Notes: generated by a model from the sequence alone, not told the origin. DNA of 64,000 nt from Opitutaceae bacterium (GCA_035545515.1 DASZYH010000234.1:3020-67019); one strand, 5' to 3'; shown: positions 16,744 through 51,836, numbered from the stretch's first letter. Translations and numbers: made by a program.

Positions 16744-16873
16744 TGCGGACCGCAGATTGCGGACTGCGGATTGAGAACAGCGACCTGACAACTTGCCGAC
16801 GCGAATTCCACCTCCCGGAGATTTCGCTCCGCTCTGACTAATCCGCACTCCGCACTCCGAAATCCGCAATCCC
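16744..16873. repeat. Inverted heptamer-array module (TGCGGAY left / MTCCGCA right)
   Basis: 4-5 units TGCGGAC/CGCAGAT/TGCGGAT at 16744-16778; ATCCGCA/CTCCGCA units at 16841-16873 ending at the next ATG. Confidence 0.8.
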
Positions 16874-18124
16874 ATGTCTCGCCTCTATTACGAGTTCACC
16901 GAGTCGATCCGGATCGCGGTGGCGCAGATCCGGGCGAACAAGATGCGCTCGGCGCTCACCGCGCTGGGCGTGATCATCGGCATCGTCGCCGTGACGCTGA
17001 TGGGCACGGCCATCCTCGGGATCGATCGTGGCGTGGAGCGCAGCCTGGCCGGCTTCGGTGACGATGTTCTCTATGTGACGCAGTGGCCGTGGCGCGACGT
17101 GAACGACTGGTGGGTGTATCGCAACCGCCAGAAGATCGATGTGCGCCAGGCCTCGGCCATCAACGAATGGATTGCCGAGCATCCCGAGGGGCCGCTCAAG
17201 CTGGCGGTGCCGACAGTCGACTGGAACGCGAACGTCCTCCGCGGAGAGCTGAAGGTCACGAACATCAACGTCGTGGGCTCCACGGCCGATCTGGCCCGGA
17301 TCACCCGTTCCGACATGAAGGAAGGCCGCTATTTCACCGACATCGAGGCCCACAGTGCGCGCAACGTGGCGGTGATCGGGTTCGACGTGGCCGATGCCCT
17401 CTTTCCGAACGAGTCGCCGATTGGAAAGCACCTCCAGATTCGCGACCAGCGTTACACGGTCGTCGGCGTCGCCGCCCGGCAGGGCAGCTTCCTTGGGCTG
17501 TTCAGCTGGGACTCCCAGGTGATCCTGCCGATCGACGCGTTCGCGCGTTCGTTCCCGGTGCGCTGGGCGGACCCGACGATCCGGGTGCAGGTCGATGCGT
17601 CGCGCATGGCCGACGGGCGGGACGAGCTGCGCGGTCTGATGCGGCGGCTGCGCCGGTTGAGCCCCGAGAAGAAGGACGATTTCGAGATCAACAGCCAGCA
17701 GGTCGTCCGGGAGCAGATCGACCCGATCAAGCAAAAGATCGCGATCGGCGGGCTGTTCGTCACGGGCCTGGCACTGTTTGTCGGCGCCATCGGGATCATG
17801 AACATCACCTACGTCAGCGTGAAGGAGCGGACGAAGGAGATCGGCACTCGCAAGGCGCTCGGCGCGCGGCGCCGGACGATCCTGTTGCAGTTCCTGATCG
17901 AAGCCGTGGGCATTTGCGTCCTGGGCGGCCTGGGCGGCCTCGCCACCGCCTGGGGATTGTCCGCGCTCGTGGCGACGGTCTTTCCCGCGTTTCCCCTCGT
18001 GTTCTCCGTCTCCCTCGTGCTCGTCGGCCTGACGCTCTCGATCGCAACCGGTGTCTTCAGCGGCTTCGCGCCCGCCTGGCAGGCCAGCAAATTGGACCCC
18101 GTGGTCGCGCTGCGCTATGAATGA
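16874..18124 (+). CDS. ABC exporter permease (MacB/FtsX type)
   Basis: RSALTALGVIIGI; GIMNITYVSVKERTKEIGTRKALGA; LDPVVALRYE. Confidence 0.95.
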   Translation: MSRLYYEFTESIRIAVAQIRANKMRSALTALGVIIGIVAVTLMGTAILGIDRGVERSLAGFGDDVLYVTQWPWRDVNDWWVYRNRQKIDVRQASAINEWIAEHPEGPLKLAVPTVDWNANVLRGELKVTNINVVGSTADLARITRSDMKEGRYFTDIEAHSARNVAVIGFDVADALFPNESPIGKHLQIRDQRYTVVGVAARQGSFLGLFSWDSQVILPIDAFARSFPVRWADPTIRVQVDASRMADGRDELRGLMRRLRRLSPEKKDDFEINSQQVVREQIDPIKQKIAIGGLFVTGLALFVGAIGIMNITYVSVKERTKEIGTRKALGARRRTILLQFLIEAVGICVLGGLGGLATAWGLSALVATVFPAFPLVFSVSLVLVGLTLSIATGVFSGFAPAWQASKLDPVVALRYE

Positions 18125-18130
18125 GGAGAA

Positions 18131-18527
18131 TTTTCGATTTTCGAATGCGATGAACGAAACCGAACTTACTACCCGGACGAAGAAGTTCGCGCTTCGTGTT
18201 TTGAAATTGATCGACGTGTTGCCGAATGCGCGTTCGGGGCGGGTATTGGCAGGGCAGTTGGGACGTTCTGGAACTTCCATTGGCGCGAACTACCGGGCGG
18301 CATGCCGAGCGCGGTCAACCGCGGACATGATTTCGAAGCTCGCGATCGTGGAAGAGGAGGCCGACGAATCTGGCTACTGGCTTGAACTCACTGTGGAGCA
18401 CGGCCTGATGCCCGGCCGGAAGGTCCAACCGCTGCAGCAAGAAGCCGGTGAACTCACCGCCATCATGGTAGCCTCTCGAAGGACCCTGCTGGCGGGAATT
18501 CGAAAATCGAAAATCGAAAATCGAAAA
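18131..18527. repeat. Inverted heptamer arrays (TTTTCGA x2 / TCGAAAA x4) bracketing the four-helix-bundle gene
   Basis: Units at 18131-18144 and 18500-18527. Confidence 0.85.
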
Positions 18528-18530
18528 TAA
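18150..18530 (+). CDS. Four helix bundle protein ('23S rRNA IVS protein' family)
   Basis: KFALRV, QLGRSGTSIGANYRAA, KLAIVEEEADESGYWLEL; tail KSKIENRK is the translated heptamer array. Confidence 0.9.
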   Translation: MNETELTTRTKKFALRVLKLIDVLPNARSGRVLAGQLGRSGTSIGANYRAACRARSTADMISKLAIVEEEADESGYWLELTVEHGLMPGRKVQPLQQEAGELTAIMVASRRTLLAGIRKSKIENRK

Positions 18531-18535
18531 CGGCA

Positions 18536-19765
18536 ATGTTAGTGATCGAAATTCTCCGGCTGGCGTTTTCCTCGCTCACAGCGAACAAGCTGAGGTCGAG
18601 CCTCACCGTGCTGGGCATCGCCGTCGGCGTCTTCTCGGTTATCGGCGTGATGACGCTGATCAACGGGATGCGGTCTTCGGTCGAGAACGGCTTGAACGTG
18701 CTCGGGGCGAACAGTTTTCAGATCACGAAATGGCCGCCGATCGGTGGTCCGAGCACCGACTGGGAGAAGTACCGGAACCGGCGCGACATCACGTATCCCG
18801 TTGCCGCGCGCTTCAAGGAATTGATGGGCGATTCCGCGCGCGTGAACGTCACAATCGGGCGGGGCGGGCAGACGGTGATCGTGCGCGACCGGCGCACGAA
18901 CCCGAACGTGGTGCTGATCGGCACGGACGAGAATTTCATCACGGCCTTCAATTTCGACGTCGGCAGCGGGCGCAACCTCGGACCGGACGACGTCGAGTAT
19001 GGCCGGCCCATCTGCGTCATCGGCGCCGACGTCGCGACGCGCGTGTTTCCGGACGAGGATCCGCTGGAGAAACTCGTGCGGATTGGCGGCCAGAATTACA
19101 CGGTCGTCGGCGTCCTGGCGCCGAAAGGATCGTCGTTCGGACAGAGCCAGGACAACCGGGTCCTGACTCCGATCACGCGCTTCCTGGCGATTTACGGCCG
19201 GGCGCGGCGGTCGATCACGATGAACGTCCAGTCGCAGAACCAAGCCGACCTTGCGGACACGCAGGAGCGGGCGATTGGCTACATGCGCCTCGTGCGCGGG
19301 CTGCATCCCGAGGACCCGAACGACTTCGAGATCTTCTCGAACGAGTCGCTGATCGAGGCCTTCAACAAGATCGCGAACATCGTCGCCGTCGCCGCGCTCA
19401 TCGTCAGCGCGATCGCGCTCCTCGCTTCGGGCGTGGGCGTCATGAACATCATGCTCGTGAGCGTCACGGAGCGCACGAAGGAGATCGGGGTCCGCAAGAG
19501 CATCGGCGCCAAGAAACTGAACATCCTGTTTCAATTTCTCTCGGAGGCGGTGGCGCTCTCGATTATCGGCGGTTCGGCCGGCGTCGCCATCGGGGTCGGC
19601 GGCGGCAATCTCGTTGCGTTCTTCCTGAACACCGGCGTGGCGTTCCCCTGGTTCTGGGCCGGCGTCGGGCTGCTGGTCTGCGGCGGCATCGGCGTGATCT
19701 TCGGCCTGTACCCGGCCTGGAAAGCCGCCTCCCTCGACCCCATCGAGGCCCTGCGCTACGAATAG
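18536..19765 (+). CDS. Second ABC exporter permease (MacB/FtsX type)
   Basis: RSSLTVLGIAVGV; GVMNIMLVSVTERTKEIGVRKSIGA; LDPIEALRYE. Confidence 0.95.
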   Translation: MLVIEILRLAFSSLTANKLRSSLTVLGIAVGVFSVIGVMTLINGMRSSVENGLNVLGANSFQITKWPPIGGPSTDWEKYRNRRDITYPVAARFKELMGDSARVNVTIGRGGQTVIVRDRRTNPNVVLIGTDENFITAFNFDVGSGRNLGPDDVEYGRPICVIGADVATRVFPDEDPLEKLVRIGGQNYTVVGVLAPKGSSFGQSQDNRVLTPITRFLAIYGRARRSITMNVQSQNQADLADTQERAIGYMRLVRGLHPEDPNDFEIFSNESLIEAFNKIANIVAVAALIVSAIALLASGVGVMNIMLVSVTERTKEIGVRKSIGAKKLNILFQFLSEAVALSIIGGSAGVAIGVGGGNLVAFFLNTGVAFPWFWAGVGLLVCGGIGVIFGLYPAWKAASLDPIEALRYE

Positions 19766-19770
19766 CGGTA

Positions 19771-19868
19771 TTTTCGATTCTCGATTTTCGATTCACCGGG
19801 ACGCGCACTCGTTCGGCGGCTCGGTGTGCGTGTCCGGAATTCGAAAATCGTAAATCAAAAATCGAAAA
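19771..19868. repeat. Gene-less inverted heptamer module (TTTTCGA / TCGAAAA) with internal hairpin
   Basis: 3 left units at 19771-19791; 4 right units at 19841-19868; self-complementary core GACGCGCAC...GTGTGCGTGTC. Confidence 0.85.
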
Positions 19869-20747
19869 TCACCGGGCGGGTGCACCGCCCGCCGGCGGGC
19901 GGCTTTCCTCACGCGCCTGGGACGCCTCCTCGCTGCCGGCCACGACCTGGGCGTGATTGAGCGACGCCACCAGCGCCACGCCGCCGACGAGGTTGCCCAG
20001 CAGAGCGGGGACGAAGAAACCCGTGATCGCGTGCCGCCAGGTGGTGTGCCCGCTGCTCGCGTAGGCGAACGCCTCGATCGAGCCCGCGATCACGTGGCTG
20101 AAACGCGCCACCCCGATGACCCAGGTGATGATGACGATCACCCAGACCCGGGCCGATTCGGCAAACGGGAGCAGCCAAACGATCAGCGCGATCAGCCAGC
20201 CCGCGAAGACGCCGCGCAGCAGGATCGTGCCGAAACTGGAGGCCATGGCCTCCCGGCCAATCGCGACAATCGCCTCGTGCAGCGAGCGATCGACCGCCGA
20301 CGTGCGGGTCACGACGATCGCGAACGCCGCGCAGCCGACGAGGTTGGCCCCCAGCACGATACCCCACAGCCGGAGAACGTTCGCGATCGAAACGTGCACC
20401 TTGCGTTCCAGGAGCGGCAGGATCGGGGTGAGCGTGTTTTCGGTGAACAACTGCTGTCGCCCGAGGATGACGATCAGGAACCCGACGCTGTAGCCCAACT
20501 TTGCGACGAGCGGCCGCCAGGGCGCGTCCGGGAGCGCCGAGCGGAGCATGGCCTCCGCGATCAGCGAGAACCCCATTGAGAGCCCTCCGGCCAGCGCCGA
20601 CCAGGCCAGCGCCAGGCTGGGCCGCTCCAGTTCCTCCAGCCCCTCGGCGAGGATCGCCTCGTGCACGATCCGACTGCTCGGCGACTGACGTTCCGCGGCC
20701 TGCTCGGCCTCGTCGGGCTTGTTTGATTGGTTGGAAGATTCGGGCAT
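19869..20747 (-). CDS. Formate/nitrite transporter family protein (YfdC-like)
   Basis: EGLEELERP..AL, GRQQLFTEN, RGVFAGWLIA, FSHVIAGS, LGNLVGG. Confidence 0.9.
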   Translation of the reverse strand: MPESSNQSNKPDEAEQAAERQSPSSRIVHEAILAEGLEELERPSLALAWSALAGGLSMGFSLIAEAMLRSALPDAPWRPLVAKLGYSVGFLIVILGRQQLFTENTLTPILPLLERKVHVSIANVLRLWGIVLGANLVGCAAFAIVVTRTSAVDRSLHEAIVAIGREAMASSFGTILLRGVFAGWLIALIVWLLPFAESARVWVIVIITWVIGVARFSHVIAGSIEAFAYASSGHTTWRHAITGFFVPALLGNLVGGVALVASLNHAQVVAGSEEASQAREESRPPAGGAPAR

Positions 20748-29749: not shown

Positions 29750-30051
29750 TGCGGAATGCGGATCGCGGAATGAACCGCCATCCGCATCTGCATGCGGATT
29801 TCGGATCGCGGATTGCGGAATGAGGACCGCAGTCCGCGTACAATCACGTGGGCGCGGTGCCCTTACCGCGCACAGCTGATGTGGGTAGGGAGGCGAGTCC
29901 CTTCGCCGCCTGCTTGGAGACGAGGCGCCCTCGCCGCGTTTCCCGATCAGGCGCGGAAGGGACTCCGCGCCCTACCGGTTCGGTGCCCGACACTCCAAAC
30001 CGATTGTCGAGTCACCCCAATCCGCACTCCGCAATCCGAATTCCGCAATCC
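29750..30051. repeat. Composite intergenic element: heptamer arms plus GTGG REP plus GTAG REP doublet
   Basis: TGCGGAW arrays left, MTCCGCA right; GTAGGGAGGCGAG... at 29885 and ...CGCGCCCTAC ending 29975; homologous to 38395-38748. Confidence 0.8.
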
Positions 30052-35669: not shown

Positions 35670-35682
35670 TGACATGCCCGGG

Positions 35683-35806
35683 TGGTTGGTATTTTGTCTT
35701 TGGTGATTTGGCCGGCAGCCGTCGTTCGATTCCGGCCGTCGCTGCCCCTGAAATCATCCGCTGAAGGTCCGCCTCACCAACTACCAACGACCAACTACCA
35801 ATTACC
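35683..35806. repeat. Heptamer module (degenerate TGGT.. left / ACCAACT right) between gyrB and gyrA
   Basis: ACCAACT ACCAACG ACCAACT ACCAATT at 35776-35803; TGGT-rich left arm from 35683. Confidence 0.65.
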
Positions 35807-38381: not shown

Positions 38382-38394
38382 GCGAAGGGCGCAA

Positions 38395-38748
38395 TTCGGA
38401 GCGCGGATTGCGGAATGAAAACCGCAGTCCGCCTCTGATTGTGGATTTCGGATCGCGGATTGCGGAATGGGTACCGCAGTCCGCGTATGATTATGTGGGC
38501 GCGGTGCCCTCACCGCGCTCTGCCGGATCTGTCTCTCGCCTCTCCGCCGAATCCAGTGGTAGGGCGGCGAGCATGCCCGCCGTAGCGCTTGGGCGAAGGA
38601 GGGTCCCTTCGCCGCCTTTCCTGCCTCGGCACGGATATCCCCCGGCAGGACGCGGCATTCCCCATCCGGCGCGGAAGGGACTCCGCGCCCTACCGGCTAC
38701 GCTGGCCTTCGGAACTCCGCACTCCGCAATCCGCGCTTCGCAATCGAA
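38395..38748. repeat. Second copy of the composite heptamer/REP element
   Basis: 38440-38518 matches 29793-29871 at 71/79 nt; 38668-38696 is identical to 29950-29978. Confidence 0.8.
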
Positions 38749-39228: not shown

Positions 39229-39574
39229 TTGGACGTCCTTTCGCCCGATAACCAACACCACCGCGGTCCTTTCAACAAGCGAGGAGTGGCGGATTCTCGA
39301 TTTTGGATTTGCGCTCCGATTGGCGGCTGCAAGCGGTCTGCCGACTTGGGCGGCTGCGATCTCTCCGCCGAAGCTTCAGCGCAAGCGGAGTACCAGCGAG
39401 CCGGCCGCGCCACGCCCACTTCCTCATGTGGCCTGAGAGAGCAGTTCGAGTTGTAGGCCGCGAGCTCGCTCGCGCCCAAAACCCTCTGAACACGCGTGGG
39501 TGTACGGCCCGCTCTCACTCGCGCAGCCTCCTTGCTTGCCTCCGCCCCGGCCGCAGCCCACGTTGGTCCCCTTA

Positions 39575-40040
39575 GCTTTGGGGCCAAGTCGTCGCTCCGA
39601 GTTCTTTGATCCCAAGGTGCGGCCAACTGCCGCACCCGATAGAGTTCGGAGAGGAAAGTCCGGACACCATAGGGCACGATGCCGCGCGAGCTTCACCGCA
39701 AGCGCGGGCGGCGCGCGTCAAGGCGCGTCGACGGACAGTGTCACAGAAAACAAACCGCCTGCCACCGCTCGGCTTTGCCGGGTGATGGCGGGTAAGGGTG
39801 AAAAGGTGGGGTAAGAGCCCACCGCGCCGACGGTGACGTCGGCGGCACGAAAAACCCCTTCCGGTGCAAGGCAAAATAGGTGGCTGGGCGGCCCGTCCAA
39901 CAGCCACGGGTATGTCGCATCCTCCTCCGCCCCTTCGGGGGCTTCGGAGGACGGGTTTCTCGCGAGAGGGACCCGAGAGAAATGACGGCTGAATCCCGCG
40001 TAAGCGGGAGGAACAGAATCCGGCTTACCGGCCCCAAAGC
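39575..40040 (+). ncRNA. rnpB: RNase P RNA (bacterial type A)
   Basis: GAGGAAAGTCCGG, ACAGAAA, AACAGAATCCGGCTTA; P1 GCTTTGGGGCC pairs with GGCCCCAAAGC. Confidence 0.95.
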
Positions 40041-51745: not shown

Positions 51746-51836
51746 ACCAACTACCAACTACCAACTACCAACTACCAACTACCAACTACCAACTACCAAC
51801 TACCAACCAGTAACTCCTAACTGCGAACTACGAACT
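51746..51836. repeat. (ACCAACT)8 microsatellite plus 5 degenerate units
   Basis: Perfect units 51746-51801, then ACCAACC AGTAACT CCTAACT GCGAACT ACGAACT. Confidence 0.95.

Follow-up and report, generated by a model that had tools for sequence, protein, structure and literature searches.

The stretch of DNA analysed here, called the window below, comprises 64,000 nucleotides of an Opitutaceae genome (G000). At positions 18130–18530 it carries a small gene of the four-helix-bundle (FHB) family between two MacB-type ABC permease genes, and HlyD and ABC ATPase genes are also among the neighbours. Permease 1 (16874–18124, + strand, stop codon 18122–18124) is the upstream host gene and has the domains MacB_PCD and FtsX (Pfam PF12704, 1.2e-34; PF02687, 1.2e-20). 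Permease 2 (18536–19765, + strand) is the downstream host gene with the same two domains by Pfam, and its closest named relative is from a Lacunisphaera MAG (67%). The FHB gene (18150–18530, + strand, TAA at 18528–18530) encodes 126 amino acids (MNETELTT...KSKIENRK*) and is the only ORF inside the cassette. Two repeat arms, recognised from the sequence, by TRF, and by the inverted-repeat score, bracket the gene. The left arm, ATTTTCGATTTTCGAAT or (TTTTCGA)2, lies at 18130–18146, 6 nt past the stop codon of permease 1 and 3 nt ahead of the FHB ATG. The right arm, ATTCGAAAATCGAAAAT and further units, is (TCGAAAA)4 and lies at 18498–18528; its bases 18500–18528 are the last 29 of the FHB frame and are translated as KSKIENRK. 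The first-pass annotation had described an FHB gene that splits a permease–permease pair between (TTTTCGA)2 and (TCGAAAA)4, and the sequence, TRF, and the profile searches confirmed this. The coordinates of its span, 18125–18535, were also fine, and the coding sequence proper is 18150–18530.

The encoded protein is an intact, full-length member of TIGR02436/PF05635, and this assignment is solid. It scored 79.1 bits against TIGR02436 (cut-off 24), covering profile positions 3–108 of 109, and 53.6 bits against PF05635 (cut-off 33.8). The nearest solved structure is PDB 2RLD (6e-16), and the protein had no PADLOC or PHROGs match. The start at ATG 18150 aligns with the starts of homologues. Another ATG in the same frame, at 18117, overlaps with the stop of permease 1; a start there would lengthen the frame through the left arm (MNEENFRFSNA...). 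Between the window gene and its nearest homologues dN/dS is 0.09–0.10, with dS saturated in those comparisons. The family has the motif GxxRxxxSxxxNxxE (PMC3936711), and at this motif the window protein reads R-SGT-S-IGA-N-YR-A, so that R, S, and N are kept and A takes the place of the E, which the second FHB of the genome retains. In the FHB clade of the window gene, with G015, G003, and G076 counted in, the sequence at the motif glutamate is ANYRA, ANYRS, or ANYRG.

FHB genes were collected from genomes of the same order by HMM search of six-frame ORFs, which gave 127 genes from 41 genomes. The arm score of each gene was the best ungapped inverted repeat between its two flanks, and 354 genes of similar size from the repeat-rich G000 genome served as controls. 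A score of at least 15 was found for 77 of the 127 FHB genes and 3 of the 354 controls, and a score of at least 12 for 97 and 10, respectively. Since many of the 127 loci are orthologous, these counts are not independent events. Phylum-wide, 17 of 29 further FHB loci scored at least 15 and 22 of them at least 12. Of the 97 armed genes, 70 have arrays of period 7, and the others have a period of 6, 8, or 9. One arm is usually within a few bases of the start codon, and the other is near the stop or inside the last codons. The second FHB gene of G000, on another contig, is also armed, with a different unit (GAAACGC/GCGTTTC). Thus, the strong enrichment of FHB genes between inverted heptamer arrays, for which the first-pass annotation had suggested a genome-wide search, is real, and the hairpin-armed FHB layout is shown to be general in this order and phylum.

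Could the cassette be a small gene that came to lie beside two unrelated simple repeats by chance? The left arm has only two units, as one would expect of such an accident. But the two arms (18130–18146 and 18498–18514) form a perfect 17-nt inverted repeat, and this score of 17 was reached by 2 of the 354 controls. Moreover, both FHB genes of G000 and most of those in relatives are armed. Chance juxtaposition is already refuted by the control comparison, and we give it practically no weight.

We then asked of the armed loci how the heptamer relates to the protein. Units were counted as matching at no more than one mismatch, and contexts as different when the flanks had no tblastx similarity. 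In different contexts, the units matched in 4 of 4 pairs at protein identities of 80% or more, 11 of 25 pairs at 60–80%, 13 of 219 at 45–60%, and 13 of 2773 below 30%. When locus L009 was compared with L012, L014, L018, and L024, homology set in at the outer edge of the left array and stopped at that of the right array, and the flanks were unrelated. Since the unit follows the FHB clade and homology stops at the outer arm edges, gene and arms behave as one unit. These alignments show that gene and arms have in all likelihood been inherited and relocated together, with the heptamer tracking the FHB clade across contexts. The FHB proteins are under purifying selection (dN/dS 0.03–0.2). In the L009 group the arms stay GTAGYGR while dS is 0.7–3, and thus the unit sequence itself is constrained, beyond complementarity. 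Arm complementarity averaged 19.0 within a locus and 4.2 across loci.

In the FHB tree, the TTTTCGA-armed genes fall into a single clade with good support, which has members from G000, G015, G003, and G021, together with an ATTGCCG-armed gene of G004. The nearest relative of the window FHB is the G021 gene, which follows permease 2 and is encoded on the opposite strand. G076 has an FHB from a separate clade, in which the arms are ATTGCGG or AAACCGG. No recent identical copies of a cassette were found, and the nearest cassettes in different contexts are saturated at synonymous sites, so movement is inferred here rather than seen.

The junction between the two permease genes could be followed in relatives. 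Orthologues of permease 2 are present in all 61 genomes of the genus, and the junction was read in 40. It is tight in 26 of the 40 congeners, with the permease genes overlapping (ATGA, nine genomes) or 9–34 nt apart. An FHB gene fills the junction in four genomes, with TTTTCGA arms in G000 and G015, TTTTTGA arms in G003, and ATTGCGG arms in G076, and no more than 8 nt of spacer is left on each side. Gene-less structures occupy the junction in other genomes, namely a TTTTCGA hairpin (G053 and G001), GTAGCGA arms (G056), CAGTAAT arms (G054 and G075), CGCTAAT-type arms (G044 and G049), and CACCGAG-type arms (G004). G046 and G052 have a plain hairpin without heptamers, and G058 has a 150-nt spacer in which no repeat was seen. 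Because the permease genes overlap or nearly abut in 26 of the 40 congeners, the cassette is a secondary insertion; the comparison of these junctions shows it to have been inserted at the stop/start junction of permease genes that were ancestrally overlapping or near-abutting. When the four filled junctions were compared with empty ones, no target-site duplication was found. The proposal of the first-pass annotation that FHB gene and arms make an insertion module was supported for the FHB cassette by the empty junctions in relatives.

The loops of the gene-less hairpins in G053 and G001 open with ATGACTGA or ATGAACGA, exactly where FHB genes open with ATGAACGA. This suggests that these two TTTTCGA hairpins are deletion derivatives of the FHB cassette. 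Empty modules had been put forward as non-autonomous forms of the cassette, which is supported at this junction by G053 and G001 and is not established for the hundreds of others. Two loci have a more complex arrangement. The junction of G044 (L037) holds a 317-nt insert with CGCTAAT-type inverted arrays around about 200 nt of non-FHB sequence, which may be a decayed cassette or cargo of a different kind. Downstream of permease 2 in G007 and G009 (L059 and L060), four array types (GAAACCG, ATTGCGG, CCCAAAA, and CTCCGAA) are nested or adjacent in one intergenic region and look like stacked modules.

On the permease tree the filled genomes are scattered, and G042, the sister of G000, is empty. 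The next-closest genome to G000 after the empty-site G042 is G076, which has an FHB of the other clade at the same junction. FHBs of two clades and no fewer than five types of gene-less hairpin have settled at this junction independently. The simplest reading would be repeated insertion or replacement at the junction, over one old insertion and many precise losses. A single ancient insertion with vertical inheritance, many losses, and no ongoing mobility would leave the arms as a relic, and the junction FHBs of G000, G015, and G003 do form one clade with related arms. Yet the identities among these three FHBs (65, 64, and 63%) are out of scale with the permease 2 identities to G000 (77% and 52%), the FHB closest to that of G000 sits at another junction and on the other strand in G021, and the same junction holds an FHB of a different clade in G076. 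A single insertion would also need ten or more precise losses, each restoring a tight or overlapping junction. We regard it as improbable, and its strict form, pure vertical inheritance, was rejected on tree incongruence.

Heptamer arrays without a gene are found at several other places in the window. All the further sites that had been named from the sequence (16744, 19771, 29750, 35683, and 38395, and the one-armed 51746 and 39293) were present by TRF or by inspection of the sequence. A module of (TGCGGAY)4 and (ATCCGCA)4-5 (16744–16872, arrays at 16744 and 16840, TRF) takes up the space from the ABC ATPase gene to permease 1 and leaves 2 nt on either side. After permease 2 there is a module of (TTTTCGA)3-4 and (TCGAAAA)4 (19770–19871, arrays at 19770 and 19844, TRF), and at this site G021 and G047 have a TTTTCGA-armed FHB gene on the opposite strand. 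TRF also found a module with a doubled TGCGGAW left array (29750 and 29793) and a CAATCCG right array (30018) at 29750–30051, one with a degenerate GGTTGGT-type left arm and an (ACCAACT)4 right arm at 35680–35806 (arrays at 35680 and 35776), and one with a doubled GCGGATT left array (38392 and 38437) and an ACTCCGC/AATCCGC right array (38707) at 38392–38745. Counting six two-armed modules, the gap between array and coding sequence is −2 to 14 nt at 11 of the 12 boundaries, and the exception is a gap of 71 nt after 35806.

Two arrays are one-armed. The TTTTCGA-type array ATTCTCGATTTTGGATTT was seen in the sequence at 39293–39320, and about 300 nt downstream of it is the RNase P RNA gene (RF00010, 159 bits, 39625–39994, + strand). 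This was the only Rfam match between 16 and 40 kb, and no module matched Rfam. The other is (ACCAACT)13 at 51746–51836 (TRF), the longest array of the window, with no complementary partner nearby; most arms have about 4.3 units (29–31 nt). The long loops of two modules contain a REP-like 27-mer, at 29950–29976 in module 29750–30051 and at 38668–38694 in module 38392–38745. This 27-mer, GGCGCGGAAGGGACTCCGCGCCCTACC, consists of a short hairpin plus CTACC and has 217 genomic copies at up to four mismatches, 189 of them intergenic.

Genome-wide, the same kind of array is abundant. The G000 assembly (6.3 Mb, 345 contigs, 65.7% G+C) was searched with TRF, and period-7 arrays were counted at 2.8 copies or more. 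There were 478 arrays of period 7, compared with 48 of period 5 and 47 of period 10. Intergenic DNA makes up only about 16% of the genome, but 331 of the 478 arrays are intergenic. The main units are ACCAACT (57), TCGAAAA (51), and ATCCGCA (48). Around 222 of the 2913 intergenic regions have an array, and 60 (about 2%) have two or more. We counted 64 two-armed modules, with loops mostly of 30–430 nt, and about 250 single arrays. The gene-less arms are typically 29–31 nt long, start right after stop codons, and finish right before start codons. A profile search of the genome returned two FHB genes and one weak unrelated match, and thus no FHB remnants in the gene-less loops. Apart from the REP-like 27-mer, these loops in G000 show no relationship to each other or to FHB. 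The genome also has seven matches to PF01797 (Y1/RAYT-like transposase), on contigs C151, C135, C101, C2, C132, C208, and C60. Four of these are in ORFs of 316–332 aa, and they are candidate trans-acting enzymes for REP-like or heptamer hairpins.

The number of gene-less arrays in a genome is unrelated to whether that genome has a cognate FHB gene. Matches to (TCGAAAA)3 with up to two mismatches numbered 147 in G004, 111 in G001, 84 in G000, 66 in G020, 21 in G003, 12 in G021, and 7 in G015, and most other genomes of the order had none. G001, G004, and G020, with 66–147 matches, lack a TTTTCGA-armed FHB gene; a resident cognate FHB is thus not needed for arrays to persist, and they may also have spread in its absence. 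Two of the commonest array units of G000, ACCAACT and ATCCGCA, have no cognate FHB in that genome. Per 400 kb, there are 3 period-7 arrays in G035, the one FHB-free genome sampled, 17 in G025, which has six FHB genes, and 30 in G000.

Intergenic heptamer repeats are found in other bacteria as well, for example the STRR of cyanobacteria. GGGNATC heptamers, with a preference for four units, were described in Xanthomonas and Nostoc by Rehm et al. 2015 (PMC4692102). Their G-rich strand comes after a stop and their C-rich strand before a start, with 70–75 convergent (inverted) pairs per Xanthomonas genome, and they were interpreted as quadruplexes (PMC4692102). In Geobacter metallireducens, Aklujkar et al. 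2009 described four-unit heptanucleotide and paired octanucleotide repeats as putative regulator sites (PMC2700814). The arrays of G000 resemble these published repeats (PMC4692102, PMC2700814) in their 7-nt unit, their roughly four units, and their intergenic position, and they share with the Rehm-type repeats the G-rich arm after a stop, the C-rich arm before a start, and the frequent convergent pairs. They differ in that the published repeats are read as G-quadruplexes or regulator sites and no protein family is named for them, whereas the arrays of the window are tied to FHB. TTTTCGA, ACCAACT, and ATCCGCA have no GGG tracts, and most of the units, TTTTCGA and ACCAACT among them, cannot form G-quadruplexes.

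These numbers raise the question of whether the heptamer hairpins are simply elements of the host's intergenic DNA, created and turned over by slippage at the borders of genes. FHB genes would then merely land or stay in the loops, the arms would be no part of a mobile unit, and FHB would not act on them. Such elements might have a role in termination, in the processing or stability of RNA, or as DNA structures of the G4 type. In G000, two FHB genes stand beside about 350 intergenic arrays and 64 modules with two arms, and array abundance does not follow the cognate gene. At least five gene-less hairpin types were acquired independently at the permease junction, and published accounts of similar arrays make no connection with FHB (PMC4692102, PMC2700814). 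All of this is what host elements would give. They would not explain why the unit follows the FHB clade across contexts and is conserved beyond neutral expectation, or why cassette homology stops at the arm edges. Nor do they account for the FHB-free genome sampled (G035), which has no period-7 excess, or for the 61–76% of FHB genes that are armed when about 2% of the intergenic regions of G000 have two arrays. Taken together, we find this explanation rather doubtful.

The arms have a fixed order. The G-rich arm comes first in 57 of the 64 gene-less modules of G000 and second in 7, for ++, −−, +−, and −+ gene pairs alike, and in the FHB cassettes of relatives the ratio is 77 to 13. An inverted repeat reads with the same arm first on either strand, which is why the order holds for any flanking orientation, and thus the polarity is strand-symmetric and uninformative on the direction of transcription. 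The first-pass annotation had stated the rule as G/T-rich first in the direction of transcription; the order is real, and its tie to transcription is not. The minimum-free-energy fold of 18118–18540 closes with a 15-bp stem between the arms. Folded as a whole, the cassette is unexceptional (z = −1.4), and the gene-less modules 16744–16872, 19770–19871, and 35680–35806 fold far more stably than shuffled sequences (z = −4.9, −6.1, and −2.9). Mismatches between the arms, read on the FHB sense strand, were not biased towards G.U (55) over A.C (49, p = 0.62). With no G.U bias and a strand-symmetric polarity, nothing singles out RNA. The modules had been called RNA hairpins specifically, and this part of the claim is not specifically supported, as the arm mismatches carry no RNA pairing signature. 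The data are just as compatible with inverted DNA arrays that bind a protein.

The closest known parallel to the cassette is the intervening sequence (IVS) with an ORF in 23S rRNA of Coxiella burnetii, Leptospira, and Xanthomonas (PMC4990558). According to Warrier et al. 2016, the Coxiella IVS is 428 nt long and has an S23p ORF that is looped out by a stem of 28 bp; tandem GACAGAT heptamers precede the start codon, RNase III excises the element, and it is possibly a former mobile element (PMC4990558). Both the IVS and the window cassette have a PF05635 ORF, looped out by a stem of terminal inverted repeats, with heptamers directly upstream of the start codon. Both are elements of about 400–450 nt for which mobility, present or past, is suspected. 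In contrast, the IVS lies in helix 25 or 45 of 23S rRNA and the window cassette at a protein-coding stop/start junction. Excision by RNase III was shown for the IVS and is a possibility for the window cassette, and arms of the window type are clean arrays of one heptamer with a unit that varies with the protein clade.

Other mobile elements are less similar. Transposons and MITEs with terminal inverted repeats share these repeats with the cassette, which however has no target duplication, no transposase of its own, and no near-identical copies. The two FHB copies of G000 belong to different clades and have different arms. REP/REPIN–RAYT systems and MITEs are likewise short hairpin-forming intergenic repeats with hundreds of copies, and in REP/REPIN–RAYT a single-copy gene is proposed to act in trans. 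Their repeat is a fixed palindrome, whereas the window arms are tandem arrays of a variable unit, and the gene associated with these arms encodes a non-enzymatic four-helix bundle in place of the RAYT enzyme. The fold of PF05635 resembles that of Avd (PMC10053308). Avd of diversity-generating retroelements (DGRs) has a homologous fold and works with nucleic acid and a reverse transcriptase, but no reverse transcriptase and no template or variable repeats are next to the window FHB. FHB genes have also been reported wedged inside cas operons (Zhang and Ye 2013, PMC3936711). No publication was found that links FHB genes with inverted heptamer arrays outside rRNA. The class had been proposed as undescribed. 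Inverted intergenic heptamer arrays are in print (PMC4692102, PMC2700814), as is an FHB ORF in a heptamer-bearing 23S stem (PMC4990558), and what appears to be left as new is the link between FHB and arrays outside rRNA.

From these comparisons we read 18130–18530 as an FHB cassette with hairpin arms, built like the ORF-bearing 23S IVS, that is, a selected gene whose ends are inverted arrays of one heptamer, and we put the probability of this reading at roughly 60%. Under this reading, an FHB oligomer would recognise its own heptamer arrays as DNA or as RNA, and the arms would be recognition sites, like the terminal repeats of a transposon, and more than a stem. In the transcript the arms may pair, and RNase III could cut the stem as it does in the 23S IVS. 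Such cleavage would release the FHB message from the host operon. There is no recombinase in the cassette, and insertion and spread would be carried out by an enzyme acting in trans. The gene-less arrays are probably the same kind of structure, as they have units, polarity, a length of about 30 nt, and a gene-abutting position in common with the cassettes. Some of them may be cassettes minus the gene, and many would persist without any cognate FHB gene.

A broader reading goes beyond the cassette in the window. PF05635 oligomers may be sequence-specific partners of heptamer arrays, with one unit per clade. The gene with its inverted arrays would then be a self-propagating element free of a recombinase, which settles at stop/start junctions, or at rRNA helices in other bacteria, and seeds gene-less hairpins that outlive the gene. 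We offer this as a tentative possibility.

Among bacterial protein families that lack a function, FHB is to our knowledge one of the larger, and we know of no accepted explanation for the heptamer repeats, which in many bacteria are over-represented more than any other intergenic tandem repeat. The locus described here joins the two in an unusually clean natural experiment, since one and the same junction is tight in most congeners, filled with FHB genes of two clades in four species, and occupied by gene-less hairpins in others. This makes the binding of FHB to the repeats and the processing of the stem directly testable. The findings also suggest that the 23S rRNA IVS represents a special case of a far broader class of elements, which can land elsewhere too. 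If PF05635 proteins are indeed partners of the arrays and propagate with them, this would explain why heptamers are in excess in bacterial genomes, a long-standing puzzle, and would assign a function to a very large protein family that lacks one.
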